A stretch of 64,000 nucleotides of DNA from the NCBI GenBank assembly GCA_963798185.1, contig CAWCSJ010000013.1, forward strand, positions 217,628 through 281,627, given 5' to 3'. How positions within the stretch are numbered: position 1 is the first letter of the stretch; every line of letters starts with the position of its first letter. Positions 5,725 to 37,049 of this stretch are shown one piece after another. This stretch comes from an uncultured Acidobacteriaceae bacterium. Lineage in GTDB: Bacteria > Acidobacteriota > Terriglobia > Terriglobales > Acidobacteriaceae. The position numbers were made by a program, and so were the translations under genes. The notes under the pieces were generated by a model. It made no database searches, was not told the DNA's origin, and was given only the letters and a program-made list of their open reading frames with translations.

Positions 5725-7236
5725 TTGAGCAAACTTCCACAGACCCTGGGCGAGCTGCGCGGTAGCTCGCAGTTTTCTGAGCAACAGGTGCGCACCCGCC
5801 GCGTTAAAGACGAAATGCGCGACAACCTGATGGCGCGCCTGCGCCATGATGGTCCCATCTTTCCCGGCATCGTCGGCTATGACGATACGGTGGTGCCGCA
5901 GATCGTGAATGCGGTATTGTCCCGCCATAATTTCATTCTTCTGGGATTGCGCGGGCAGGCCAAGAGCCGCATTCTGCGCGCGCTGGCCAGCTTGCTCGAT
6001 CCGCATGTGCCTTACCTGAGCGGCTGCGAAATCCACGACAATCCTTATGCGCCGATTTGCCGCCGCTGCCGCGAATTGCTGGCCAACAATCCCGACAACG
6101 CGCCAATTTCGTATCTGACTGCCGAAGATCGCTACGTGGAAAAGCTGGCGACGCCCGACGTCACCATCGCGGACCTGATCGGCGACATCGATCCCATCAA
6201 GGCGGCCAAGGGCGGCCACGAGCTGGGCAGCGAGTACACCGTCCACTACGGACTGTTGCCGCGCGCCAATCGCGGCATCTTCGCTATCAACGAACTGCCC
6301 GATCTCGCCGGCAAAATTCAGGTGGGGCTGTTCAACATCATGCAGGAAGGTGACGTGCAGATTAAAGGCTACCCGGTGCGCATGCCGCTCGACGTGGCGC
6401 TGGTGTTCAGCGCCAACCCCGAGGATTACACCGCTCGCGGCAAAATTATTACGCCGCTGAAAGACCGCATCGGCTCCGAGATTCGTACGCATTATCCGGC
6501 GAGCATCGAAGAGGGCATTGCCATCACGGCGCAGGAAGCGTGGACGGCGCGCAACGGCCTGCAGTTACAGATTCCGGAATTTGTGAGCCAGGTGATCGAG
6601 CAGATTGCCTTCATCGCGCGCGAAGACAAGCGCGTGGACAAGCGATCCGGTGTGAGCCAGCGGCTGCCCATCAGCGCCACGGAAAACGTCGTCTCCAACG
6701 CCGAGCGGCGCGCGATTCGCTCGGGCGAGAAGCTGGTGGTGCCGCGCATCGGCGACATCTACGCCGCGCTGCCGGCGATGACCGGCAAACTCGAGCTGGA
6801 ATACGAAGGCGAACTGAAGGGCGCAGACAACGTGGTGCGCGAGATTATTCGCGCCGCGGTCGCGCGCGCCTACGACAAATATTTTCATGGCAGCGGCAAC
6901 ATGAACCAGGTGGTGCAGTGGTTCGATCTGGGTGGCGAAATCCAGATGCGCGACTCCGCCGGCGCGCAGGAGATGCTGCACAACCTGCGCAGCATTCAAG
7001 GGCTGCTGGATAAATTGAGCGGCCTGGGGCTTAGTGGGAAAGAGCCGTCGGAGGTGCTGGTTTCGGGGGCGGAGTTCATTCTGGAAGGCCTCTATGCGCA
7101 CAAGAAAATTGGGCGCAGCGAAGAGCGGACATTCACCGCCGGCGAGAAACAGCCGGTACGCGAGAAGCCGCGCGTCCGCACCGAAGAGGACGACGAAGTG
7201 CCGGATTTGCGGAGGCACAGAAGGCCGTTCAATTAG
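5725..7236 (+). CDS. BchI/ChlI-like AAA+ ATPase (Mg-chelatase-related; often annotated as sigma54-interacting)
   Basis: TTG start with GGAGG about 10 nt upstream. P-loop-like LLGLRGQAKS, Walker B-like IFAINELPDL. 503 aa. A vWA partner lies downstream. Confidence 0.75.
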   Translation: MSKLPQTLGELRGSSQFSEQQVRTRRVKDEMRDNLMARLRHDGPIFPGIVGYDDTVVPQIVNAVLSRHNFILLGLRGQAKSRILRALASLLDPHVPYLSGCEIHDNPYAPICRRCRELLANNPDNAPISYLTAEDRYVEKLATPDVTIADLIGDIDPIKAAKGGHELGSEYTVHYGLLPRANRGIFAINELPDLAGKIQVGLFNIMQEGDVQIKGYPVRMPLDVALVFSANPEDYTARGKIITPLKDRIGSEIRTHYPASIEEGIAITAQEAWTARNGLQLQIPEFVSQVIEQIAFIAREDKRVDKRSGVSQRLPISATENVVSNAERRAIRSGEKLVVPRIGDIYAALPAMTGKLELEYEGELKGADNVVREIIRAAVARAYDKYFHGSGNMNQVVQWFDLGGEIQMRDSAGAQEMLHNLRSIQGLLDKLSGLGLSGKEPSEVLVSGAEFILEGLYAHKKIGRSEERTFTAGEKQPVREKPRVRTEEDDEVPDLRRHRRPFN

Positions 7237-7242
7237 GGGCGA

Positions 7243-7291
7243 GCAATCAGCAATCAGCACTCAGCACTCAGCATCCAGCACTCAGGCTTCA
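7243..7291. repeat. heptanucleotide tandem array (GCAMTCA units)
   Basis: About 7 units, starting 6 nt after the stop at 7236. It is the reverse complement of the 7717-7835 array. Confidence 0.9.
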
Positions 7292-7320
7292 GAACGAGAA
7301 TCGCAGATCGGAGATTCAAA

Positions 7321-7698
7321 ATGAAGGACTTCAGAGATTTGGATGTTTGGAGGAAGGCGCACTCCGCCACTTTAGCTGTTTATCGCGCCACCGCCGATTA
7401 TCCGAAGGAAGAGCTGTACGGACTGACTTCACAGATGCGAAGGTGCTGCGCTTCTATTCCGGCGAATATTGCGGAAGGGTGCGGACGGCGCGGAAATGGC
7501 GAGTTCCATCGATTTCTGACGATAGCGATGGGCTCAGCTAGCGAGTTGGAGTATCACCTTTTACTCTCGCATGACCTGGGCTTTCTGGAGTTGACAAAAT
7601 TCGACGCTTTGACTTTTCAGACGCAGGAAATCAAGAAAATGCTGGCGTCGTTGATTCGGCGGGTCGATTCGGAACGTGCCCACGCCATGCCAGCCTAG
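7321..7698 (+). CDS. four-helix-bundle protein (23S rRNA intervening-sequence protein family)
   Basis: 125 aa. DLDVWRKAH, YGLTSQMRRCCASIPANIAEG and GSASELEYHLLLS are typical of the family. GGAGA lies 8 nt upstream of the ATG. Confidence 0.85.
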   Translation: MKDFRDLDVWRKAHSATLAVYRATADYPKEELYGLTSQMRRCCASIPANIAEGCGRRGNGEFHRFLTIAMGSASELEYHLLLSHDLGFLELTKFDALTFQTQEIKKMLASLIRRVDSERAHAMPA

Positions 7699-7716
7699 TT
7701 ACAGGTGTTCGTTTTG

Positions 7717-7835
7717 GCTGCGTGCTGAGTGCTGAATGCTGAGTGCTGAATGCTGAGTGCTGAATGCTGAGTGCTGAGTGCTGAGTGCTGAGTGCTGAGT
7801 GCTGAGTGCTGAGTGCTGACTGCTGACTGCTGAGT
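7717..7835. repeat. heptanucleotide tandem array, 17 units of GCTGAGT/GCTGAAT/GCTGACT
   Basis: Exact 7-nt phasing counted from 7717 to 7835. It ends 8 nt before the ATG at 7844. Confidence 0.95.
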
Positions 7836-7843
7836 GCTTCTTC

Positions 7844-9085
7844 ATGCGATTCATCAAATACAAAAAATACGTTCCCGAGCCGGCCTCTGAGATGAGCATG
7901 GAGGACCTGCTCAGCGCGCTTTCCGATTATCTGCTGCAGAGCGGTTTCCAGCAGCAGTACATGGATTTCTACGACCTGAAGGACGCGGAGCAAACGCTGG
8001 ACGATCTGCGCCAGGCCATCGCCGAGGCGCTGCTTAACAGCGACATGCTGGACCAGCAAATGCGCGAGCAGATCGAGAACATGAGCCCTGAGCAGATGGA
8101 AGACCTGATCGAGCAGCTGATCGAGCGCATGGAGCAGGAAAACTACATCAACGTGGATGCGCCGCACGATCCCACGCGCAGCTCGACCGCCGGGGGCCAG
8201 GTCGGCGACGCGCAATCGCAGGCGCGCTTCGAGATCACCGACAAGGGGCTCGACTTCCTCGGCTTTCGCGCGCTGCGCGATCTGCTGGGCTCGCTCGGCA
8301 AATCGAACTTCGGCCGCCACGACACGCGCGACCAGGCCACCGGCATCGAGGCCAGCGGCGCGTCGAAGACCTACGAATTCGGCGACACGCTGAACCTGGA
8401 CATCACCGCGACGCTGTCGAACGCGATTCAGCGCGAAGGCCTGCACCTGCCGCTGAATATCGAGTACAGCGATCTGCAGGTGCATCAGTGCGAATATCAG
8501 TCGTCGTGCGCCACTGTGCTGCTGCTCGACTGCTCACACTCCATGATTCTGTATGGCGAGGACCGCTTTACGCCCGCCAAGAAAGTGGCGATGGCGCTGT
8601 CGCATTTGATCCGCACGCAATACCCTGGCGATTCGCTGTCGCTGGTGCTGTTTCACGATTCGGCGGAGGAGTTGCCGCTGTCGCAGCTGGCACGCGTCAA
8701 GGTCGGGCCGTATTACACCAACACGCGCGAGGGCCTGCGCCTGGCGCAGCGCATCCTGCAACGCCAGCGCAAAGACATGAAGCAGATTGTGATGATTACC
8801 GACGGCAAACCATCAGCGCTGACCTTGGAGGATGGCCGCATCTATAAGAACGCGTTCGGACTGGACCCGCTGGTGGTGAGCGAGACGTTGAAGGAAGTTT
8901 CCAAGTGCAAGCGTGCGGGAATCCTGATCAATACGTTCATGCTCGCGTCTGATTACGGGCTCATCCAGTTCGTGCAGAAGGTCACCGAGATGTGCCGCGG
9001 GAAAGCGTACTTCACCACGCCGTACACGCTGGGCCAGTATCTGCTGATGGACTACATGTCGCGCAAGACCAAGACGGTGCACTGA
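7844..9085 (+). CDS. von Willebrand factor A (vWA) domain protein, partner of the BchI-like ATPase
   Basis: 413 aa. MIDAS DxSxS is present in LLLDCSHSM, and ITDGKPSA follows later. Confidence 0.8.
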
Positions 9086-9425: not shown

Positions 9426-9913
9426 TCGTCGTAGCGGATACCTCGCCGCTTAACTACCTAATTCAAGTTGATTGTGAATCGCTCCTCCCGTCGCTTTACA
9501 AACGAGTTCTCATCCCGGCAGCGGTTCTTGAAGAACTTGGCGATCCTGCCGCGCCCGCAAGCGTCAATCGATGGTTGTTGAACGTCCCCACATGGGTCGA
9601 AGTTAAAAAAACCACGACCTCTCCTGATGCGGCGCTGAGCTTTCTTGATCCCGGTGAACTACAAGCGATTCAACTAGCGCAGGAGCAGCGGGCTGACCTG
9701 CTCCTGATCGATGAACGCAGAGGCCGTCTTGAGGCTATGCGGCGCGGATTAGCAACAACGGGAACCCTGGGAATCCTGCTTACCGCTGCTGAGCGCGGCT
9801 TGATCGACGCAGCCGCCGTATTCCATCGGCTCATTACCGAAACCAATTTCCGCACGACAGCTGACCTTCGCAGCAGGTTTTTGGCGGAAGTGCGAGACAT
9901 AGATAAGCGCTAG
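9422..9913 (+). CDS. DUF3368 (PIN-like) putative toxin
   Basis: 163 aa. N-terminus is MIVVADTSPLNYLIQV. Paired with the UPF0175 gene. Confidence 0.7.
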   Translation: MIVVADTSPLNYLIQVDCESLLPSLYKRVLIPAAVLEELGDPAAPASVNRWLLNVPTWVEVKKTTTSPDAALSFLDPGELQAIQLAQEQRADLLLIDERRGRLEAMRRGLATTGTLGILLTAAERGLIDAAAVFHRLITETNFRTTADLRSRFLAEVRDIDKR

Positions 9914-10170
9914 ACGCCGGGTTTTGGTTCTGATGGTGCGGTGTCGTCGGCTTTCTTCACCGCAGCTTCGGCGGCCTGGAAGCCAATCTTGGAATGGGTC
10001 CCGTCGCAGAAAGGTTTATTGACCGATCCACCGCAACGGCACAGAGAAAATGCTGTCTTGCCGGTCAGGTCGTAGGGATTGCCGTCAGCATCCACCAATT
10101 CGACTACGCCCTCGGGCGCTTCTATGCGGAACGGCCCATCTCTGCGGACCGTGATTTTCACTTGTGCCAT
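9910..10170 (-). CDS. CDGSH iron-sulfur domain protein
   Basis: 86 aa with the exact CDGSH signature CRCGGSVNKPFCDGTH. Confidence 0.85.
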   Translation of the reverse strand: MAQVKITVRRDGPFRIEAPEGVVELVDADGNPYDLTGKTAFSLCRCGGSVNKPFCDGTHSKIGFQAAEAAVKKADDTAPSEPKPGV

Positions 10171-10210: not shown

Positions 10211-10430
10211 GCAATCAGCAGTCAGCTCAGCAGTGCGTCGAAAATTATTCACCACAGAGACACGCAGGGCACGGAGTGGCAGATGCGGCGCAACTGGGCT
10301 TTTTTGGATCAAGAGGGTCAAGTCGCAGGAATAGGGGTTCTTCGACTCCTCGCTGCGCTCCTCGCCGCGGATGACAATCAAAAGCAGGTCCCTCAGCTCG
10401 GTCGTCGCGGCGACCTCGGTCGGGATGACA
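10211..10430. repeat. composite repeat block
   Basis: Short heptamer run at 10211-10235, CACCACAGAGACAC motif at 10247-10285, and a B-type hairpin element (AAAGCAGGTCCCTC...CGGTCGGGATGACA) at 10336-10430. Confidence 0.75.
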
Positions 10431-10445
10431 GCTCGAAACTGAAGT

Positions 10446-10529
10446 GCTGATAGCTGACGGCTGATAGCTGATAGCTGATGGACGACAGCTGAATGCTGAG
10501 TGCTGACGGCTGACAGCTGATAGCTGACA
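10446..10529. repeat. heptanucleotide tandem array, 12 units of GCTGAnn
   Basis: Phasing was counted unit by unit. A partial 13th unit, GCTA, runs into the stop-codon complement at 10531-10533. Confidence 0.95.
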
Positions 10530-10530
10530 G

Positions 10531-12750
10531 CTATTTTTTGAACGCCACGTTTACCAGCAGCTTCTCGCCTTCCACATCGACGACGTTGCAAAACGTCCGA
10601 TCGCCGCGGCGGGTGAAGTCGAGACCCACGCGGCTGCTGGCGATGCGCAAGTTGCGAATGTGCAGATGGTCGAGCCAGTCGGGCAGTCGCGGGTTGATGA
10701 TGTTCAACTCGCGGCGCGGCGCGCTGGGCCGAATTCCCAGCACCGACGCCAGGACCAGAAACATTGCACCCGAGGCCCAGGCCTGCGGCGAGCATGACAC
10801 CGGATAATGCACCGGCTCATCGTATTCGCGACGCTGCATTCCGCAAAAAAGTTCAGGCAGGCGATAGTCGCGAAATTCCACCGCCGTCTGGTACAGCGAG
10901 GTCAGGATGCTGAGGGCGCCGTCGCGCAATTCGTTGACGGCCATGCCGTGCGCGATGATGGAATTATCGTGCGGCCACACCGAGCCGCGATGGTAGCTGA
11001 GCGGATTGAACACCCGCTCTTCCTGCGACATGGTGCGCCATCCCCAGCCGGTGAACATATCATCGCGCATCAGGCGATTGGCGACGGTGCGGGCGCGTTC
11101 CTTGCTGATGATGCGGCCGAACAGCAGATGCCCCGGGTTAGACGAAATCACCTCCAGCGGCTTCTTGTCGGCGTCGAGCGCCATGGCGTAGAAGCTGCGG
11201 CTCGGCACCCAGAAGGCGCGGTCGAAGCGGCGGGCCAGCTCCAGCGCATCGCGCTTCAGCCGGTCGGCGATCTTGATGTCGCCGAATGTCCGCAGCAGCG
11301 ACGACATGCGATACTTTGCGTCGTACACGTAGCCCTGGACTTCGCACAGCGCGATGGGCGGCTTGGCGATGGTGCCATCGCGATGCATGTTGGCGTCCCA
11401 GGAATCCTTCCAGCCCTGGTTGACCAGGCCCTTGGGCGAGCGCCGCAGATATTCGACAAAGCCGTCGCCGTCAAGGTCGCCGTACTTGTCGATCCACTCC
11501 AGCGCGGCGTAGGCATGCGGCAGCATCTCCTGAACCAGTGCTTCGTCGCCGGTCCAGTTGAAGGTCTCGCTTAGCAGGACGAGGAACAGCGGTGTGGCAT
11601 CGACCGAACCGTAGTAGGGGCCGAAGGGCATTTCGTCGTGACGGGTCATTTCGCCGTCGCGATACTCGTGCAGAATCTTGCCCGGCTCTTCGTCGCGCCA
11701 GTCGTTGTATTCCTTGCCCTGGTAACGGGCCAGCACGCGCAGGGTCTCGACCGCCAGTTGTGAATTCAGCGACAGCGACTGATAGGCCGCAATGATGGAG
11801 TCGCGGCCAAACATGGTGGCGAACCAGGGAATGCCAGCGGCGATGATGTGCTGATCGCCATCGGGAATTTGCAGCGCGTGAAAATCGCCGATGCCGGTCT
11901 TGAGCATCTCGTCGAAGACTTCGTTGTCGCTGGTGAAATTGGTGGAGCTGGATTCCCAGCGCGAGAAATTGGCGCGACGCTGCCGGAGCTGGTAATCGAA
12001 ATCGTAGTTCTGGGCGCGCGATGGCCGGGCTTCCACGAATGGCGTTACCGATATTTGCAGCTCGACGCGCTTCAACGGCTCCAGCCGCAAATCCCAACGG
12101 GCAATGCGTTCCTCGACTTGGGCGGGCAGGGGCGCCAGCTTGATCAGGGTCTGGCGCATCACGTTGTCGAGCCCGCGGTAATAAAAGGCGATGGTATTTT
12201 CGCCGACCACGGGCTGGTAATACTGGCCGTGCTGTTCCCGGGCCACGCCGCGCACCTGAAACACGTCGACGAAGTCGGCGTCGAAGAGCAGCTCGACGGT
12301 AAAGTCCACGGGGATGAGATTGAAGTTTTCAAAGCTCAGACGGTCGAAGAGCATCTCCGACGCCAGCACCTGTTCCCGGCGCACGTGGACGGTGTTCTGA
12401 GGAAGATCGAAAGAATCGCGCAGGGTGATGTTGCCGGTGGTCAGCTCGATCTGCGCGGAAAATGTTTTTTCGGTGCTCGACGAGAGCACCATGGCGCGAT
12501 GGCCGCCGATGCGCAGCTCCAGGTGGCTGAGGAAGCGCGTGTCGTCGTGGAAAAAACCAACGTCTGGCGCGCCCGCCGGATGAATGTCGCCGGCGACATT
12601 GGTAGCGCTGAAGGTTTTGCCGTCGATGAGGGTCAGGTTGTCAACCTTCCGCGGCTCCATCGCGGGAAAGGCAAAACGCGGCTCCAGGTAAGGCGACGGG
12701 ATCTCGATCAACCGCTGGTCGGGAAGTGTGAGATACGTACTCATCAGCAA
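10531..12750 (-). CDS. glycogen-debranching-enzyme-like protein (N-terminal GDE domain plus amylo-alpha-1,6-glucosidase six-hairpin domain)
   Basis: 739 aa. The block GIPWFATMFGRDSIIA and overall length are typical of bacterial/archaeal GDE_C proteins. Confidence 0.75.
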   Translation of the reverse strand: MLMSTYLTLPDQRLIEIPSPYLEPRFAFPAMEPRKVDNLTLIDGKTFSATNVAGDIHPAGAPDVGFFHDDTRFLSHLELRIGGHRAMVLSSSTEKTFSAQIELTTGNITLRDSFDLPQNTVHVRREQVLASEMLFDRLSFENFNLIPVDFTVELLFDADFVDVFQVRGVAREQHGQYYQPVVGENTIAFYYRGLDNVMRQTLIKLAPLPAQVEERIARWDLRLEPLKRVELQISVTPFVEARPSRAQNYDFDYQLRQRRANFSRWESSSTNFTSDNEVFDEMLKTGIGDFHALQIPDGDQHIIAAGIPWFATMFGRDSIIAAYQSLSLNSQLAVETLRVLARYQGKEYNDWRDEEPGKILHEYRDGEMTRHDEMPFGPYYGSVDATPLFLVLLSETFNWTGDEALVQEMLPHAYAALEWIDKYGDLDGDGFVEYLRRSPKGLVNQGWKDSWDANMHRDGTIAKPPIALCEVQGYVYDAKYRMSSLLRTFGDIKIADRLKRDALELARRFDRAFWVPSRSFYAMALDADKKPLEVISSNPGHLLFGRIISKERARTVANRLMRDDMFTGWGWRTMSQEERVFNPLSYHRGSVWPHDNSIIAHGMAVNELRDGALSILTSLYQTAVEFRDYRLPELFCGMQRREYDEPVHYPVSCSPQAWASGAMFLVLASVLGIRPSAPRRELNIINPRLPDWLDHLHIRNLRIASSRVGLDFTRRGDRTFCNVVDVEGEKLLVNVAFKK

Positions 12751-13832: not shown

Positions 13833-14077
13833 TTAAAAGTCCTTTTTCCCTACACGTCGGAAAGAATGATTGGAATGCGCTTGCGCTTAAAAATCGGAGA
13901 GCTAACTCGCTTATCAAGATAGATGCAGGAAATTGCAGCGGGGTGTGCCGGTTCGAGGCCACGGCGTCGGTTTCTGATGCTAGGAATCTGGCGCTTCCGA
14001 TTGGATGCAAAAGCAGATTCATAGCTCCCCACCCCATCGAGGGCAAAAGCGGCCCTCGCTGGGGACGCCGGATACGC

Positions 14078-14146
14078 TTGTGATGACAATTCGAGAAAGG
14101 ACTCACCGCTGTGCTCGTGATGACAATTCAACTCGTGATGACAATT
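14078..14146. repeat. three tandem A-type arm copies (CTTGTGATGACAATTC / GCTCGTGATGACAATTC / CTCGTGATGACAATTC)
   Basis: Direct reading. Same arm sequence as the A-type elements. Confidence 0.7.
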
Positions 14147-14227
14147 CAAAAAGATCCGTCGTTGCGCTCGCTAGGGTCGGATTTTTGGTTCCGACCTTGT
14201 CATGCCGATTCTCAATTGGTGTGTGGG

Positions 14228-14340: not shown

Positions 14341-14562
14341 CTCCACGAACGTCGGGCGGAAGGATTTCTCCTAATTTGGAACCAAATGTGAGAGTAGTGC
14401 AGCTACTGTCGCGTTTTGGACGGGCACTTCTTACATGTTAATAGGGAAAAACACAACAATTTGCCGCAAACTACTGAATTTAAGCACGATATATACTTGC
14501 AAAACCGTGTCATTTTTGGCTGGAATGTGCTATATTGAACCTAGAATTGAGATTGAGAGAAG

Positions 14563-14590
14563 CCCAGCTAACCGCTGGGTTTTCGTGTTT
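14563..14590 (+). terminator. candidate intrinsic terminator or attenuator hairpin in an AT-rich leader
   Basis: CCCAGC-TAACC-GCTGGG followed by TTTTCGTGTTT. An extended -10-like TGCTATATT lies at 14528-14536. Confidence 0.3.
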
Positions 14591-14717
14591 CAGCAGTGCT
14601 CCAACCCTGTCCGCTGGCGAACATCGGCGTTACGCTGGCGGACATTGCAACCATCCCTCCACCTGTAAACTACTGATAAATCAGCTCCCCAGCGTGGCCA
14701 GCGCCTTGCACTGAAAG

Positions 14718-14752
14718 CAGTTGTCAGTAGCCAGTTGTCAGTTGTCAGGCTG
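14718..14752. repeat. heptamer array CAGTTGT CAGTAGC CAGTTGT CAGTTGT
   Basis: Ends 14 nt before the ATG at 14767. The same 28-mer occurs at 33181, and its first 24 nt at 17310. Confidence 0.9.
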
Positions 14753-14766
14753 CTAAAGGCAAAATT

Positions 14767-17301
14767 ATGCACACCATCTGGCATGAGATTCGATACGCAC
14801 TGCGTCAGTTGCGCAAAGCGCCGGGCTTTGCCGCCGTCGCGGTTCTGACGCTGGCGCTGGGGATCGGCGCAAACATCGCGGTGTTCTCCGTGACCAACGC
14901 GGTCATGCTGAATCCCAGCGGAATTCCTCATGCCGCCGGGATGGTGGCGTTGCGGGCCCGCTATCGCGCCATGCCCGATCTGAACAACATCGGCATGTCG
15001 GCGCCGGACTTCGGTGACGCAGCCGACGGCAAGACCATCTTCTCGTCAGGCGCGGTCATGCAGCCCGCAAGCTTCAACTACGCCCGTGAAAACGGCAATC
15101 CTGAATTGTTGCAGGGCGCCACCGTTTCGTCGGGCTGGTTCGATACGTTCGATGTGCGGCCGTACCTGGGGCGCGTGTTCACGCCCGAAGAAGACCAGCC
15201 GGGCGCCGCGAATGAGGTCGTGTTGTCGTATCGGGTGTGGAAGAAGAGGTTCGGCTCCGATCCTAGTATCGTTGGCCAGACGCTGATGCTCGACAATCAG
15301 GCGTATCGCGTAGTGGGGGTGATGGGGCGGTCGTTCAATTGGCCGAACCAGGCGGAGATTTGGGTGCCGATAGCGCTGCCGCCGGCCCGCTATCACGATC
15401 AGAAATTTCGCTATAACGAAAACCTGTTTGCGGCGGGGCGACTGCAGCCGGGAATGACCGTGCAGCAGGCGAACGCCTATCTCGATCACAAGGCCGAGGA
15501 GAGCATCGCCTCGGAAGGCGGCAAGAGTTACGGCCGGGCCAGCGGGTGGGGCATGTTCGCGATGCCGCTGAGCGAATATATTGGCGGCAGCCTGCGCAAG
15601 CCGCTGACCATGTTGCTGATCGCGGTGGGCATGGTGCTGCTGATCGCATGCGCCAACATTGCGGGATTGCAGATGGCGCGGGCATCGGCGCGGGAGCGCG
15701 ATTTGGCCATCCGCGTTGCCCTGGGCGCGCAGAGGGTCCGGTTGCTGCGTCAGGCGCTGATGGAGAGCATCGTGATCACCGTCGCCGGAGTCGCGCTGGG
15801 ATTCGTGGTGGCGTGGGTGACGGTTCCGCTGTTGTTGCGTTACCTTCCGGATGCGCTCAGCACGACCATTCAGCCGTCGTTGGGCGGTCCCGTGCTGTTG
15901 TTTGTGACCGGCATTGCGGTGATGTGCTCGCTGCTGTGCGGACTGGTTCCCGCCTGGCAGCGTACCCAGCCGGGATGGTTCAACGCACTGCAGGAGGGCG
16001 GCCGCTCGGGCACGGGCAGCCTGATGCAGCAGCGGGCGCGCTCGTTTCTGGTGGTGGCACAGATCGCGCTGTCGCTGTTGTTGCTTACGGGCGCGGGCCT
16101 GCTGATGACCAGCCTGAAGGCGCTGGAGCAAGTGGAAACTGGGTTTCAACCGAGCGGTTTGCTGTCGGCGCGTTTCTCGTTGCCGCAGTCAGTTTACGGT
16201 GTGAAGCCACCGGTGACCAGCGGTCCGACGGCGAATGACGCGGCGGCGAAAGAAGCTGCGGCCAAGGAAGCGGCGGCGGCACAGGCCGCCAGCGATGCGA
16301 AAATTGCGGCATTCCTCAGCACGGTGCAAGAGCGGCTGCACAGTACTCCCGGGGTGGGCGGCGTAGCACTCGCCGACTCCATGCCCTTCGATAATCAGGG
16401 CGGCTCGTCGAGCTTTTACATTGAAGGGCGTCCGGCGGGACCGAATGATCCGGGACCGCACGGCAACGTTCGGGTGGTTTCGCCAGAATACTTTTCCACC
16501 CTACACCAGCCGCTGATGATGGGGAGGGAGTTCGTAGCGCAGGACCGCCAGGGCACCGAACAGGTCGCGGTCGTCGATTCGGTGTTGGCGCGCCAATACT
16601 GGCCGGGCAAAAATCCTATCGGCGAGCACATCGGATTCAACGATCCCGTGAAAGGCCCGTGGTACACGATTGTTGGGCTGGTCGGGCACGCCAGTTCCAC
16701 ATCGCTGGAGTCGGACCCCAACGAGGGCTTCTACTACATTGACTCGGCACAGTCGCCACAGTTGTCAAACACGGTCGTGGTGCGCAGTTCGCGGTCGCTG
16801 GCGGATTTGAAAAACGGCATGGCCGCCGCGGTGCGGTCGGCGGATTCCAGCATTCCGATCTACGACGTGAAGACGATGGAGCAGCGCGTGGACGAGTCGC
16901 TGCTGGGCCGCCGCTTTGTGGTGCTGTTGCTGACGACGTTTGCGGGATTGGCGTTGTTGCTGGCGGCGTTGGGGCTGTATGGGGTTATCAGCTACTCGGT
17001 ACGGATGCGGACGCGCGAACTCGGCGTGCGCATGGCCCTAGGCGCGCAGCGGGTCGAGGTGATGCAACTGGTGTTGATGCAGGGCATGCGGCTGGCGGTG
17101 ATCGGAGTAGTTTTTGGCGCGCTGGCGGCGCTGGCGTCGGGACGAATTTTTTCCAGTCTATTGTTCAAGGTGGGGATGTTGAACCCGCTGCCGTGGATCG
17201 GGGCGATGGCGATCCTGGTGGCGACCGTGTTGCTGGCCAGTTATCTGCCGGCGCGCCGTGCGGCGTCGATTGAGCCTATGCAGGCGCTGCGGACGGAGTA
17301 G
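14767..17301 (+). CDS. ADOP-family duplicated FtsX/MacB-like ABC permease
   Basis: 844 aa. Signature N-terminus IRYALRQLRKAPGFAAVAVLTLALGIGAN. Two FtsX modules, each preceded by a periplasmic domain. Confidence 0.9.
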   Translation: MHTIWHEIRYALRQLRKAPGFAAVAVLTLALGIGANIAVFSVTNAVMLNPSGIPHAAGMVALRARYRAMPDLNNIGMSAPDFGDAADGKTIFSSGAVMQPASFNYARENGNPELLQGATVSSGWFDTFDVRPYLGRVFTPEEDQPGAANEVVLSYRVWKKRFGSDPSIVGQTLMLDNQAYRVVGVMGRSFNWPNQAEIWVPIALPPARYHDQKFRYNENLFAAGRLQPGMTVQQANAYLDHKAEESIASEGGKSYGRASGWGMFAMPLSEYIGGSLRKPLTMLLIAVGMVLLIACANIAGLQMARASARERDLAIRVALGAQRVRLLRQALMESIVITVAGVALGFVVAWVTVPLLLRYLPDALSTTIQPSLGGPVLLFVTGIAVMCSLLCGLVPAWQRTQPGWFNALQEGGRSGTGSLMQQRARSFLVVAQIALSLLLLTGAGLLMTSLKALEQVETGFQPSGLLSARFSLPQSVYGVKPPVTSGPTANDAAAKEAAAKEAAAAQAASDAKIAAFLSTVQERLHSTPGVGGVALADSMPFDNQGGSSSFYIEGRPAGPNDPGPHGNVRVVSPEYFSTLHQPLMMGREFVAQDRQGTEQVAVVDSVLARQYWPGKNPIGEHIGFNDPVKGPWYTIVGLVGHASSTSLESDPNEGFYYIDSAQSPQLSNTVVVRSSRSLADLKNGMAAAVRSADSSIPIYDVKTMEQRVDESLLGRRFVVLLLTTFAGLALLLAALGLYGVISYSVRMRTRELGVRMALGAQRVEVMQLVLMQGMRLAVIGVVFGALAALASGRIFSSLLFKVGMLNPLPWIGAMAILVATVLLASYLPARRAASIEPMQALRTE

Positions 17302-17309
17302 GGGTAGTG

Positions 17310-17337
17310 CAGTTGTCAGTAGCCAGTTGTCAGTGAA
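17310..17337. repeat. heptamer array CAGTTGT CAGTAGC CAGTTGT CAGTGAA
   Basis: Starts 8 nt after the stop at 17301. It is a direct repeat of 14718-14741. Confidence 0.9.
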
Positions 17338-17560: not shown

Positions 17561-17623
17561 TTGCTGAAAGCTAAGGGCTGATGGCTAAGACCTAATGGCT
17601 AATTGCTAGTTGCTAGTTGCTTA
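17561..17623. repeat. heptamer array, 9 units (TTGCTGA ... TGGCTAA ... TTGCTAG)
   Basis: 7-nt phasing counted. Ends 10 nt before the ATG at 17634. Confidence 0.85.
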
Positions 17624-20132: not shown

Positions 20133-20200
20133 AGAAGCAGCAACTAGCAGCTAGCCACAGAAGTAACCCAGGACGCCAGTCCCGCGTGGACGACCAGCCG

Positions 20201-20422: not shown

Positions 20423-20497
20423 TCTTGTCACCTCGGGTCAGCAAAGCTGCCGTAACGAGTAAGAACCAGAATTTCGGTATGGCGTTGTATGGAGAAA

Positions 20498-20706
20498 GTG
20501 GATAGTGGGTGGTGGCTAGTGGATAGCGCTATCGATAAAGCTTCTGCCAGGGACGGAAACAGCAGGTCCCTCCGCTCGGACTGAAGTCCTCGGTCGGGAT
20601 GACAAAATCAAAGAAGTGGATAGTTGTGGAAAAGTGGATAGTCAAGCGTGCCGATCAAAGGTCTGGTTAAAGCTGATAGCAGATGGCTGAAAGCTGACGG
20701 CTGGTT
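20498..20706. repeat. composite repeat block
   Basis: GTGGATA-type heptamers at 20498-20525 and 20616-20643, a short B-type hairpin at 20556-20606, and GCTGAnn heptamers at 20672-20706 that run into the stop codon of the gene ending at 20705. Confidence 0.85.
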
Positions 20707-21487
20707 AAGGCTGGCCGGGCCCGGTGCTCGTGCTGGTCGGCACACTTGCCTCGGTGGGTTCGTTGGCTTCAGACCAGCTGTTGTTCTGGTCCAAATGGTT
20801 GGAGTACTTGTCGAAGACCACGACGTGCAGGACCGGCTGGCTCTCTTCGATGGGGTCGATCATACCCGACTCTTTCAGAGGCAGCATGTAGGTGAGGATC
20901 CAGGCATACTGCTGCATGGTCAAGCCGCGCCGCGAGAGATCGAAGGTAACTCCGGTCAAATGGGTGGAAGCGGTATCGCCCCACTCCGGCGCGGCATAAC
21001 GATTGTGCCGCCGCAGCCGTCCCTGCTGCTCCATGGTGCGCACCAGGGAATTGATCTGCAAGGAACTGTGGAATTGGTTGTAGTAAGCCTGGCTGAAATC
21101 CTGCAGGAAGTCGCGCGTCCACGGCCGACAGTAGCGCCGGCTATCGGGAAGGTCGGCCGCCAGCTTGAGCGCATCGGTCTCGGCAACCTGGACCAGAACT
21201 CCGGAAACCTCGTAGCGTATGAGCTCTGCCTCGTCGGCAATGCGCGGCAGTTGCAAGCGGTTCAGTTCTTCGTTTTGACGCACCAGCAAGTCGTGCGAGC
21301 CGGGATACATGCGGGAATATTGGCTGGCGTTCCAATGAGAGCTGGGATTGAGAGCGCGGTGGTGGGTCTTATGTACTTTCGGGGTGGGCGTCACTGCCGA
21401 GGCTGGGGCGCAGACCACCAGGGCCAGCAGACACAGCCCCGCCAAGGGAGCGAGCTTGCGAAAGTTTAAAAGTGGCGGAACTGGCAT
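20705..21487 (-). CDS. secreted protein of unknown function, possibly a LAS/M15-like peptidase fold
   Basis: 260 aa. Signal peptide LAPLAGLCLLALVVCAPASA. The STHLTGVTFDLS segment resembles the SxHxxGxAxD metal site. Function is uncertain. Confidence 0.55.
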   Translation of the reverse strand: MPVPPLLNFRKLAPLAGLCLLALVVCAPASAVTPTPKVHKTHHRALNPSSHWNASQYSRMYPGSHDLLVRQNEELNRLQLPRIADEAELIRYEVSGVLVQVAETDALKLAADLPDSRRYCRPWTRDFLQDFSQAYYNQFHSSLQINSLVRTMEQQGRLRRHNRYAAPEWGDTASTHLTGVTFDLSRRGLTMQQYAWILTYMLPLKESGMIDPIEESQPVLHVVVFDKYSNHLDQNNSWSEANEPTEASVPTSTSTGPGQP

Positions 21488-29212: not shown

Positions 29213-29240
29213 TCTAAAAACAGCATTCAGCATCGCCAAA

Positions 29241-29282
29241 GCACTTGCTAACGGCTAATTGCCAAATGCTAAATGCTGGTTG
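29241..29282. repeat. heptamer array, about 6 units (CTAACGG CTAATTG CCAAATG CTAAATG)
   Basis: Ends 1 nt before the stop-codon complement of the gene ending at 29284. Confidence 0.8.
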
Positions 29283-29283
29283 G

Positions 29284-30180
29284 CTATACAAACTTTCCCG
29301 GCACCGGCTTGTTGGGGTCGGTGTAATCGTAGAAGCCTTTGCCGGTCTTGCGGCCGTACCAGCCGGCCAGCACCAGTCGGCGCAGCAGCGGAGGCGAGGC
29401 GAAGCGCGGCTCCTTGAATTCGTCAAACATGACGTGCGTGATGTAATACGTGGTGTCGAGGCCGACAAAATCGAGCAGCGTAAACGGTCCCATCGGGTAT
29501 CCGCATCCCAGCTTCATGGCTTCGTCGATGTCGGTGATGGAGCCGACGCCCTCCTCATACGCGCGAATTGCGTCGAGTAAATACGGTACCAGCAGCCGGT
29601 TTACGATGAATCCAGTTTTATCGCTGGTGCGCACCGGCACCTTGCCCAGCTTCTTGGCGAACTCATACGCGGTGTCGTACACCTCGGGCGCGGTGGCGAT
29701 GGTCTTTACCACTTCCACCATCTTCATCATGGGGACAGGATTGAAGAAGTGCAGCCCGATGAAGCGCTCCGGCCGCTTGGTGGCCGTCATCAACTCGGTG
29801 ACAGAGATCGATGACGTGTTGGTGGCGAAGATGGCGTCCTTCTTCACGACGGCGTCGAGCTGCGCGTAGGTCTTGCGTTTCTCTTCGACGTTTTCGATGA
29901 TGGCCTCGATGACGATATCGCGGTCGGCGAGGTCCTGCATGTTGGTCGTGCCCTTCAGGCGCGACTGCGCTTGCGTTTTTTGCTCGGCGGTCAGGCCGCC
30001 TTTCTCCGGACCGCGCTCGACCAGGCGCGACAGGGATTTCTCAATGCCGGCAAAGCCCTTGTCAAGAAACTTCTGGTCTTGTTCGAGCACCACCACGTCG
30101 AAACCCGCGGTGGCCGCCACTTGCGCGATGCCTGAGCCCATCAGGCCACAACCGAGCACGCCAACTTTTTTGATATCCAT
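29284..30180 (-). CDS. hbd: 3-hydroxybutyryl-CoA / 3-hydroxyacyl-CoA dehydrogenase
   Basis: 298 aa. Rossmann N-terminus is KKVGVLGCGLMGSGIAQV. Confidence 0.88.
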   Translation of the reverse strand: MDIKKVGVLGCGLMGSGIAQVAATAGFDVVVLEQDQKFLDKGFAGIEKSLSRLVERGPEKGGLTAEQKTQAQSRLKGTTNMQDLADRDIVIEAIIENVEEKRKTYAQLDAVVKKDAIFATNTSSISVTELMTATKRPERFIGLHFFNPVPMMKMVEVVKTIATAPEVYDTAYEFAKKLGKVPVRTSDKTGFIVNRLLVPYLLDAIRAYEEGVGSITDIDEAMKLGCGYPMGPFTLLDFVGLDTTYYITHVMFDEFKEPRFASPPLLRRLVLAGWYGRKTGKGFYDYTDPNKPVPGKFV

Positions 30181-32873: not shown

Positions 32874-33110
32874 CTACTGAATGATGTCGCTGAGCGGTTG
32901 GCCCCAGGATTCGCGCCGCGTGCCGAAGGTCTCTTCGCAGGCGTCGCAGTACCATTCGGGGCTGTCTGGGCGAATGCAACAGCCTCCCAGCACGTATCCG
33001 TCCTGAGCGAATTCCGGCGGTTCGTCTGAGGGCAGACGCCCGTAAGCAATCTTCTTCACATCGTCCTTGCTATCGCACCGGGGGCAGATCGGGGTTGGAC
33101 GGGGTTTCAT
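32874..33110 (-). CDS. small Cys-rich (zinc-ribbon-like) protein
   Basis: 78 aa with CPRC ... GGCC ... CDAC spacing. No family recognised. Confidence 0.45.
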   Translation of the reverse strand: MKPRPTPICPRCDSKDDVKKIAYGRLPSDEPPEFAQDGYVLGGCCIRPDSPEWYCDACEETFGTRRESWGQPLSDIIQ

Positions 33111-33180: not shown

Positions 33181-33256
33181 CAGTTGTCAGTAGCCAGTTG
33201 TCAGTTGTGAGCGAGAGCAACCCCAGACCCTTCGACTCCTCGCTTTGCTCGTCGCT
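33181..33256. repeat. heptamer 28-mer CAGTTGTCAGTAGCCAGTTGTCAGTTGT plus a B-type arm fragment
   Basis: The 28-mer is identical to 14718-14745. CCCTTCGACTCCTCGC lies at 33228. Confidence 0.85.
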
Positions 33257-36406: not shown

Positions 36407-36441
36407 GTCTGACAACTGATAACTGACAACTGAAAACTGCC
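36407..36441. repeat. heptamer array GTCTGAC AACTGAT AACTGAC AACTGAA AACTGCC
   Basis: Ends 1 nt before the stop-codon complement at 36443. Confidence 0.85.
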
Positions 36442-36442
36442 T

Positions 36443-36847
36443 CTACTTCCGCGGGCCGGCTTCGCTTTCCTTATACATATATTTAATGCTGGGTTTGTAA
36501 ATCAGCAGATTGGTGGCGCCGTTGCGGTTCACTTTCAGGCAATACTTGTCGTACCACTCGATGACACCATGGACCTCTTCGCCGTCGTGCAGCACCAGGA
36601 CCATTGGCGTCTTGGTTTGCATTTGCTTCTGATAGTAAAAATTCTCGGCATGGGTCTGCTCTGGCGGCGGGGTCTTCTTGGCTCCATTCATGATGGGGCT
36701 GGGACGATCGCTGCGCGGCCGGCGTTCAGGCGCTTCCTGGCGCGGGTGGTCGTTGCGGTTAAGTGCGGGACGAATCAGCTTACGATTGGCAAACACTTCG
36801 GAGTCGAGCGCTCGACCCACGGCAGTGGAATCCATGGAATCTTTCAT
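36443..36847 (-). CDS. Hfq-like Sm-fold protein with an N-terminal extension of about 65 aa
   Basis: ATG 36847 has AGGAGC 8 nt upstream. The C-terminal PMVLVLHDGEEVHGVIEWYDKYCLKV...LLIYKPSIKY parallels the Hfq Sm1/Sm2 (YKHAI) layout. Confidence 0.6.
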   Translation of the reverse strand: MKDSMDSTAVGRALDSEVFANRKLIRPALNRNDHPRQEAPERRPRSDRPSPIMNGAKKTPPPEQTHAENFYYQKQMQTKTPMVLVLHDGEEVHGVIEWYDKYCLKVNRNGATNLLIYKPSIKYMYKESEAGPRK

Positions 36848-37049
36848 GGTGTTTGCTCCTAAGGTGGAATGCACACCAGCCTTACGGATACCGTCAACTC
36901 AAGCGTGATCTCAATGCAGGGGTCGCGGATACGCGGACTCGAATTGTCCCAGGCTTTTAAAGGTGTGTGAACTTGCAGATACCCTAACACAGCCGAATCT
37001 GCAAAACAATCCGAATACGACTTTGGCGGATTACCCTGGCTGTGCCCGC

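Follow-up and report, generated by a model that had tools for sequence, protein, structure and literature searches.

Short tandemly repeated repetitive (STRR) sequences built of heptameric units have been reported from the cyanobacteria Calothrix and Nostoc, and the heptamers of heterocystous cyanobacteria were reportedly described by Mazel in 1990. To our knowledge, neither the origin nor the function of heptanucleotide repeats has been established. Here we study such arrays in a 64,000-nt stretch of DNA (the window, C13:217628-281627) from the 4.70 Mb metagenome-assembled genome (MAG) of an uncultured Terriglobales bacterium of peat and soil ('Ca. Korobacteraceae'; genome G000, 40 contigs, 4.95% contamination). 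On balance we favour the view that they are an acidobacterial family of the STRR type, occurring as paired or solo arms of polar intergenic palindromes, which would slip by 7 nt with templating between the arms, is coupled to the protein family PF05635, and would resemble intervening sequences (IVS) at the RNA level.

Related repeats have been described in several lineages. The GGGAATC repeats of Xanthomonas and the GGGGAYT repeats of Nostoc are 89-93% intergenic and sit closer to one of the two neighbouring open reading frames (ORFs; Rehm et al. 2015, PMC4692102). They include 70-75 convergent pairs with the potential to form stem-loops or cruciforms, the type of site, single or paired, is kept between species while its length varies, and most of the Xanthomonas repeats are transcribed (PMC4692102). 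TAACTGA direct repeats are found in marine Beggiatoaceae, Cyanobacteria and Bacteroidetes, where forward copies end one to a few nt before starts, reverse copies follow stops, and lengths change in steps of 7 nt (MacGregor 2015, PMC4679880). A preference of polymerase slippage for 7-nt units is credited to Mrazek 2007 in PMC4679880. Geobacter metallireducens has sites of three to five tandem units of 7-9 nt, in octa-, nona- and heptanucleotide classes with tens of loci, and its octa- and nonanucleotide sites are paired on opposite strands at variable distance (Aklujkar 2009, PMC2700814). Among the IVS of 23S rRNA, that of Coxiella burnetii measures 428-444 nt, carries an S23p ORF in a loop closed by a stem of 28 bp, and is cut by RNase III (Warrier 2016, PMC4990558). 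The PF05635 family is related to Avd, an accessory protein of diversity-generating retroelements (DGRs; PMC10053308).

A first-pass annotation of the window, made from its letters alone, had listed 14 sites with 7-nt-phased arrays close to starts and stops and claimed that they belong to a genome-wide family. Eleven of the 14 were recovered by Tandem Repeats Finder (TRF) at score ≥30. The remaining three, of about three units each, are short or degenerate; they lie below this threshold and are visible in the letters (Table 1). The distances it gave to stops and starts are accurate to a few nt. The family is far larger than had been claimed: the TRF scan of G000 returned 520 arrays of period 7, against 135 of period 6 and 184 of period 8. 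We also used a probe that is agnostic to the unit, AGY repeated five times at fixed spacing, and compared spacings of 5 to 10. Period 7 yielded 166 matching sites, and each of the periods 5, 6, 8, 9 and 10 yielded 0-3. Hence, the period-7 signal is far beyond chance. The median array has 4 units and the longest 17.4, and their 134 canonical units are led by CAGTTGT, CGCTNTT, AGCAATT, AGTTTCR, CAGCTGT and AGCACTC. They differ from CRISPR arrays, which have repeats of 24-48 nt and unique spacers, in that the 7-nt units directly abut one another.

Genes were called with our own simple codon-bias caller (3958 genes, 81% of G000). Non-coding DNA makes up about 19% of the genome and holds 80% of the arrays, or around 90% of those with TRF score ≥36, whereas repeats of period 6, 9 and 12 are mostly coding. 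To obtain expected counts for array edges we placed each array uniformly within its own intergenic spacer. Edges within 10 nt of a stop numbered 178 for 50.6 expected, a 3.5-fold excess, and edges within 10 nt of a start, whose positions are approximate, numbered 60 for 34 expected. The placement at gene borders that the first-pass annotation had noted in the window is real, and the tendency is strong. The gap between stop and array is usually 2-5 nt and consists of 74% purines. No obvious T run of the kind expected of an intrinsic terminator followed the arrays inspected, for which no systematic count was made.

The stop codon TAG accounts for 50% of the stops abutted by arrays and for 35% genome-wide, so some arrays do supply the adjacent TAG. 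Stop codons within the units were rejected as the sole cause of the abutment, since CAGTTGT, CGCTTTT and AGTTTCG have none on the sense strand and still show orientation ratios of 29:1, 10:1 and 8:0. Stop usage in G000 (TAG 35%, TGA 37%, TAA 28%) is unusually rich in TAG for a bacterium with 58% G+C, which may be linked to stops supplied by TAG-containing units.

The arrays have a fixed polarity. We use S for the strand whose units have the form xAG[C/T/G]xxx or CGCxxxx (short form xAGyxxx). S runs 5'->3' away from the adjacent gene, be it the stop or the start end of that gene, in 163 cases and the other way in 6. Between co-directional genes, arrays in S-sense lie near the stop in 76 cases and near the start in one, and arrays in S-antisense lie near the start in 35 and near the stop in 5. 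All 44 arrays near a stop in convergent spacers are S-sense relative to the nearest stop, and all 8 near a start in divergent spacers are S-antisense relative to the nearest start. Put geometrically, S is on the top strand at the left edge of a spacer and on the bottom strand at its right edge. The polarity is that of a palindrome with S as the 5' arm on both strands, not that of transcription. The sites of the window conform to it, except the array at 14718-14752, which would conform as well if a 59-aa ORF at 14535-14714 is real. The linkers between stop and 5' arm are rich in purines (GAAG, AGG, GGAAGG) and those between 3' arm and ATG often rich in pyrimidines (CTTCTTC, CCTTT), for example at 7237-7241 and 7839-7843 and in relatives. 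The palindrome therefore reaches the codons, and the downstream gene often has a leader that resembles an anti-Shine-Dalgarno rather than a Shine-Dalgarno sequence.

Neighbouring arrays tend to be inverted with respect to each other. At distances below 1 kb we counted 67 inverted and 16 direct pairs, a ratio that is reversed beyond 1 kb. Among 576 merged arrays, 173 had an inverted match within 700 nt, compared with 18 in the random-locus control and with 56 direct matches. Most inverted pairs (51 of 67) lie between co-directional genes, and in about 22 one arm is no more than 15 nt from the stop and the other no more than 15 nt from the start, so that the operon spacer is filled exactly. Loops measure 6-666 nt. 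Stems have a median of 28 bp with around 89% Watson-Crick pairs, and the sense-strand mismatches in the 51 stems of co-directional spacers comprise 47 G·U and 48 A·C, without an excess specific to RNA.

The spacer between the genes for a MoxR-like ATPase and a VWA protein, which holds the longest array of the window, can be compared across relatives of the same genus and beyond (VWA identity down to about 82%). It nearly always reads stop, S array, inverted array and ATG. The units differ by species and the two arms co-vary, as in TGGCTAG/CTAGCCA, GTCGTTG/CAACGAC, CAGTTGT/ACAACTG, CGCTGTT/AACAGCG and AGCCGCG/CGCGGCT. Relatives from another family of the order have a MoxR|VWA spacer of 12-25 nt that lacks arrays. 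Unit numbers differ between close relatives. Two of them, with VWA proteins each 98% identical to that of G000 and with spacer flanks that are near-identical by eye, carry 5 (L033) and 14 (L035) GCTAATT units. Likewise, the trpE|trpG spacers of contigs C26 and C27 of G000 differ by exactly one heptamer unit, in the 3' arm. The turnover of units with the arms kept complementary, in stems lacking a G·U excess, points to slippage and arm-to-arm templating at the level of DNA.

We know of no role for proteins of the widespread PF05635 family outside DGRs. All five genes of this family in G000 are found in the loops of inverted array pairs, each pair made of a different unit family. The host gene pairs of these cassettes, all of them conserved, are MoxR|VWA, trpE|trpG (twice, on near-identical contigs) and dprA|topA. 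In the window, the gene sits between the MoxR-like ATPase gene and its VWA partner, and encodes a relative of XCC0516, a pentameric four-helix-bundle protein (PDB 2GSC). The two arms are paired in the RNA fold predicted for 7234-7846, which places the upstream UAG and the downstream AUG at the base of the stem (minimum free energy -251 kcal/mol, z = -5.4). In its dimensions and form it matches the 23S IVS of Coxiella. A tblastn search of G000 with the PF05635 proteins found one decayed remnant, at C13:173912-173959 beside an intact cassette; the other loops were clean.

Two of these loci deserve a separate description. The stretches C26:49755-50229 and C27:19541-20001 carry the same near-identical trpE - PF05635 - trpG arrangement, with PF05635 proteins about 96% identical, and probably represent strain heterogeneity within the MAG rather than a true duplication. 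At C13:173827-174460 two array pairs stand in tandem, the first with a decayed PF05635 3' end in its loop (16 aa, 94% identical to its neighbour) and the second with an intact gene, which looks like a duplicated cassette of which one copy has eroded.

The association extends well beyond this genome. We sampled 301 genomes spread over the Acidobacteriota, of which 178 had hits to the period-7 probe. Hits are distributed very patchily: they are nearly absent from one genus of the same family and exceed 1000 probe windows in certain genomes. Array load correlated with the number of PF05635 genes (Spearman 0.70), at the level of genera (0.70) and of families (0.68) as well. PF05635 was present in 74 of the 78 array-rich genomes and in 87 of the 223 others. 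Genome size was rejected as a confounder because the partial correlation stays at 0.68 once its effect is removed. Reverse transcriptase (RVT_1), which we counted as a control, gave a Spearman correlation of 0.24 (partial 0.11) and is absent from several array-rich genomes of the family. It was thus rejected as driver or confounder, and a telomerase-like or retroelement origin is unsupported. G000 itself has at least 10 RVT_1 hits (C15, C30, C36, C21, C19, C14), several of them mutually identical, a pattern typical of a multi-copy group II intron or similar retroelement.

The flanks of PF05635 genes tell the same story. We took 40 genes from the top of the match list in Acidobacteriota, representing about 23 families, and found 35 of them between inverted tandem arrays, mostly of period 7 and in some cases of period 8. 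In two sets from other phyla the fractions were 17/20 and 13/15. This makes 65 of 75 genes in at least five phyla, against 3 of 200 ordinary small genes from the array-rich G000. The flanked carriers include Anabaena, Scytonema, Okeania, Moorena, Arcicella, Christiangramia and a Poribacteria MAG. In seven Xanthomonadales the PF05635 gene is single-copy, and its arms consist of the GGGAATC-type repeat found in the same genomes. In genomes of other phyla that had been chosen for their arrays, 20 of 23 encoded PF05635.

Taken as polar palindromes coupled to PF05635, the arrays could evolve and act as follows. The element takes up the spacer between the stop of one gene and the start or stop of its neighbour, and its arms would lengthen or shorten by 7 nt at a time through replication slippage. 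Their complementarity may be kept at the DNA level, either by hairpin-templated strand switching or by gene conversion between arms. Slippage combined with copying from arm to arm would let unit sequences turn over fast and the layout persist. Once transcribed, a pair would fold in vivo into an imperfect duplex of 20-60 bp with the upstream stop and the downstream start at its base. Since such a duplex is built like the ORF-bearing 23S IVS that RNase III excises, we propose that the elements may be cut by this enzyme and act as IVS-like inserts in mRNA spacers. A bolder and more tentative extension is that PF05635 pentamers are the trans-acting partner of heptamer arrays across bacteria. They might bind the array hairpins, as DNA or RNA, and promote their formation, maintenance or processing, in which case STRR arrays, gene-less palindromes and 23S IVS would be one system.

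Several observations weigh against this interpretation. Around 70% of the arrays have no detectable partner, and an all-against-all blastn of the 67 loops revealed no common core, only shared pieces of a REP-like (repetitive extragenic palindromic) element. With G·U and A·C mismatches in balance, the stems offer no positive evidence that an RNA helix is under selection. Gene-less pairs could be regarded as decayed PF05635 cassettes, an idea we rejected given the single remnant and the otherwise clean loops. At the MoxR|VWA spacer, G000 alone has the PF05635 gene (0 of 80 relatives), and a search of 40 same-genus genomes for the 7292-7716 cassette gave a best match of 72% DNA identity. With no relative carrying the gene there and no closer copy, its presence would be a gain or a loss with no sign of recent movement. 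Gene starts from our caller are approximate, stops being exact, and the non-acidobacterial genomes were picked for long TAACTGA or GGGAATC arrays. Finally, the correlation with PF05635 could reflect a shared preference, with hairpin loops serving as safe harbours, rather than function.

Each of the rival explanations leaves several results unexplained. Of the two readings put forward in the first-pass annotation, insertion or expansion at gene borders lies nearer to the evidence, and a role at the RNA level has gained no specific support. The latter would make the arrays cis-acting RNA elements: before starts, platforms that bind proteins of S1, Csp or CsrA type, as has been suggested for the TAACTGA repeats, and after stops, terminators or stabilisers of 3' ends. 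Their few-nt distance to starts and stops would suit such a role, as would the purine-rich linker after stops, the frequent lack of a Shine-Dalgarno sequence in genes downstream of an array, the orientation shared with TAACTGA repeats, forward before starts and reverse after stops (PMC4679880), and the transcription of most Xanthomonas repeats (PMC4692102). Yet the polarity is symmetric with respect to the spacer and extends to convergent and divergent ones, the stems have no G·U excess, and the units at one spacer are wholly different between species. Such turnover argues against a sequence-specific binding site, and the more than 130 unit types of G000 would be hard on a sequence-specific binder. 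We give RNA elements a small chance. The fast turnover at one site and the lack of G·U excess agree with another rival, that of purely neutral simple-sequence repeats, for which slippage favours 7 nt, arrays survive only at sites that tolerate lengths other than multiples of three, and border-hugging follows from short spacers. The strongly intergenic placement and the 7-nt differences between near-identical copies are in its favour as well. Neutrality nevertheless seems unlikely, as it accounts neither for the excess of edges near stops over uniform placement, nor for a polarity of 163:6, nor for inverted partners at 173 against 18 with matching unit families on both arms, nor for a correlation specific to PF05635 (0.70, against 0.24 for the control).

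Mobile elements akin to MITEs (miniature inverted-repeat transposable elements) or REPs, spread by a transposase such as a REP-associated tyrosine transposase (RAYT) or an IS200/IS605-type enzyme acting on hairpins, would be expected to have homologous loops and constant arms and, for MITEs, to show a target-site duplication. The loops are mostly unrelated, the arms vary by site and by species, alignments of filled and array-only orthologous spacers show no target duplication, and reverse transcriptase, the sole family tested, correlates weakly. A mobile origin is thus very unlikely, even though the palindromic build, the intergenic location, the hundreds of copies, the patchiness among genera of one family and the REP-like 'TGTCATC...' hairpins beside many arrays are in its favour. 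An artefact of assembling or binning short-read metagenomes might be suspected from a 40-contig MAG with 4.95% contamination and two near-identical contigs (C26 and C27). We assign it a negligible probability, because arrays occupy the same spacers in 18 or more species of the genus, long-read MAGs whose contigs measure 1-2 Mb among them, because complete genomes of cultured bacteria hold equivalent arrays, and because the arrays lie inside contigs and not at their ends. We therefore retain the polar, PF05635-coupled palindromes as the best account of the data.

Table 1. Heptamer arrays and the PF05635 gene in the window. TRF intervals are those reported at score ≥30; S is the strand defined in the text.
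Positions	Strand	TRF interval	Feature	Evidence and context
7242-7291	+	7242-7285	5' arm, ~7 units AGCAATC/AGCACTC (S on top)	TRF; 5 nt past TAG stop of MoxR-like ATPase gene (5725-7236); pairs with 7717-7838 in RNA fold
7321-7698	+		PF05635 gene (23S rRNA IVS protein / Avd-like four-helix bundle) in loop of the pair	Pfam E 8.7e-38; PDB 2GSC E 6e-20
7717-7838	-	7717-7838	3' arm, 17.4 head-to-tail units GCTGAGT on top (S on bottom)	TRF, RNA fold; 5 nt before ATG of VWA gene (7844-9085)
10211-10235	+		Short array AGCAATC AGCAGTC AGCTCAG, left spacer edge	Sequence, sub-TRF; ~40 nt upstream of start of minus-strand gene 9910-10170; inverted partner of 10446-10532
10446-10532	-	10446-10532	12.4 units GCTGAYA on top (S on bottom)	TRF; enters stop of minus-strand glycogen-debranching-type gene (10531-12750)
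14718-14752	+	14718-14748	CAGTTGT x4.4	TRF; 14 nt before ATG 14767; apparent polarity exception
17310-17337	+	17310-17334	CAGTTGT x3.6	TRF; 8 nt past stop of MacB/FtsX permease gene 14767-17301
17561-17623	-	17570-17621	GCTAATG/GCTAGTT units on top (S on bottom)	TRF; 4-6 nt before ATG 17628 of second permease gene
20137-20157	+		AGCAACT AGCAGCT AGCC	Sequence, sub-TRF; 4 nt past stop 20132
20497-20526	+	20497-20526	AGTGGAT-type, 4.3 units, mid-spacer	TRF
20616-20643	+		Degenerate AGTGGAT-type, beyond REP-like hairpin element	Sequence, sub-TRF
20672-20706	-	20672-20703	GCTGAWA/GCTGACG units on top (S on bottom)	TRF; overlaps stop of minus-strand gene 20705-21487 (DUF5715)
~29222-29236			Short inverted partner AGCATTC AGCATC of 29241-29282	Sequence
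29241-29282	-	29246-29277	GCTAAWT-type units on top (S on bottom)	TRF; 1 nt from stop of minus-strand 3-hydroxyacyl-CoA dehydrogenase gene (29284-30180)
33181-33208	+	33181-33208	CAGTTGT x4, left side of spacer	TRF; 70 nt upstream of start of minus-strand 78-aa CxxC ORF (32874-33110)
36407-36441	-	36409-36439	CTGACAA x4.4 on top (S on bottom)	TRF; 1 nt from stop of minus-strand Hfq-domain gene (36443-36874)

Some neighbours of the arrays are worth recording. The 59-aa ORF at 14535-14714 stops 3 nt short of the CAGTTGT array that lies upstream of the first MacB/FtsX permease gene. Near it, at about 14497-14535, is a promoter-like TTGCAA...TATATT, and the ORF could be a leader peptide or due to chance. 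The gene at 36443-36874, with a heptamer array at its stop, encodes 143 aa, of which the last 50 residues match Hfq (PF17209, E 2e-7), preceded by an N-terminal extension of about 80 residues. A second repeat family, of REP-like hairpins reading TGTCATCC(C/T)GAGCG...GAAGGA(T/C)C or GATGACA, is present at 10341-10432, 14040-14150 and 20553-20606 of the window and at many other loci of G000. These hairpins (TGTCATC..GAAGGA type) often occupy the loop of a heptamer pair or directly adjoin an array. Within the region of one of them, at 14114-14149, an 18-nt piece is tandemly duplicated.

Heptamer arrays are in print for Cyanobacteria, Xanthomonas, Beggiatoaceae, Bacteroidetes and Geobacter, and the Acidobacteriota, a dominant phylum of soils, can now be added. 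We found no description of heptamer repeats in Acidobacteria in the searchable literature, the first-pass annotation being aware of none either, and no paper there that presents PF05635 as a partner of genome-wide arrays. The fixed polarity, the inverted pairs able to form hairpins and the link with PF05635 go beyond this first-pass annotation; the one cassette at 7237-7843 had been flagged in a separate note by the same reader. Any explanation has to meet three constraints: a polarity set by spacer geometry, arms that co-vary without the mismatch bias typical of RNA, and a quantitative link with PF05635. This link offers a testable lead on the nature of these long-puzzling repeats, whose function we infer. 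It makes the question approachable in culturable carriers such as Xanthomonas, where a single gene is concerned and the structure of X. campestris XCC0516 has been solved (PDB 2GSC). If PF05635 were indeed the partner, a 35-year-old puzzle, that of the STRR sequences, and a large protein family of unknown function would share a common, testable explanation. For annotation, the arrays mark exact gene ends and account for odd long spacers in conserved operons.

REPs and bacterial interspersed mosaic elements (BIMEs) have one conserved imperfect palindrome of 20-40 nt across the genome and go with a RAYT transposase. The arrays are tandem repeats with 134 units and no single palindrome consensus, and a separate REP-like element (TGTCATC..GAAGGA) exists alongside. 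The Geobacter sites were read as binding sites of global regulators, and neither a polarity rule nor a link with PF05635 is given for them (PMC2700814). The ORF-bearing 23S IVS of Leptospira and Coxiella have a PF05635/S23p ORF in a loop of 400-450 nt, closed by terminal inverted repeats that form a stem of about 28 bp or more. The arrays share this build at all five genes of G000 (the arm pairing being a predicted fold), with cassette loops of 406-431 nt and stems of 24-35 bp or longer. They differ from these IVS, which are inserted in helix 9, 25 or 45 of the 23S rRNA, in that their hosts are mRNA spacers between protein-coding genes and that most pairs have no ORF. The intergenic bias, the closeness to one ORF, the inverted pairs and the length variation are shared with the GGGAATC and GGGGAYT repeats. 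Those were read as formers of G-quadruplexes, of which most units here are incapable, and with no mention of PF05635 (PMC4692102). TAACTGA is the complement of the S-type unit TCAGTTA, to be compared with our CAGTTGT, and obeys the same polarity rule (PMC4679880). In BOGUAY there is one dominant unit, mainly at starts, and one inverted repeat, whereas G000 has more than 130 units, mainly at stops, and many inverted pairs (PMC4679880).

The likeness with the STRR sequences or long heptanucleotide simple-sequence repeats had been aptly noted in the first-pass annotation. Like them, the arrays consist of head-to-tail 7-nt units, occupy hundreds of dispersed intergenic loci with several unit families per genome, and vary in unit number among strains and close relatives. 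For STRR sequences, we found no statement in the literature of a polarity, of inverted pairing or of a link with PF05635. The acidobacterial arrays belong to another phylum, are built of other units, and stand out by their polarity to spacer edges, their frequent inverted pairing and their quantitative link with PF05635.

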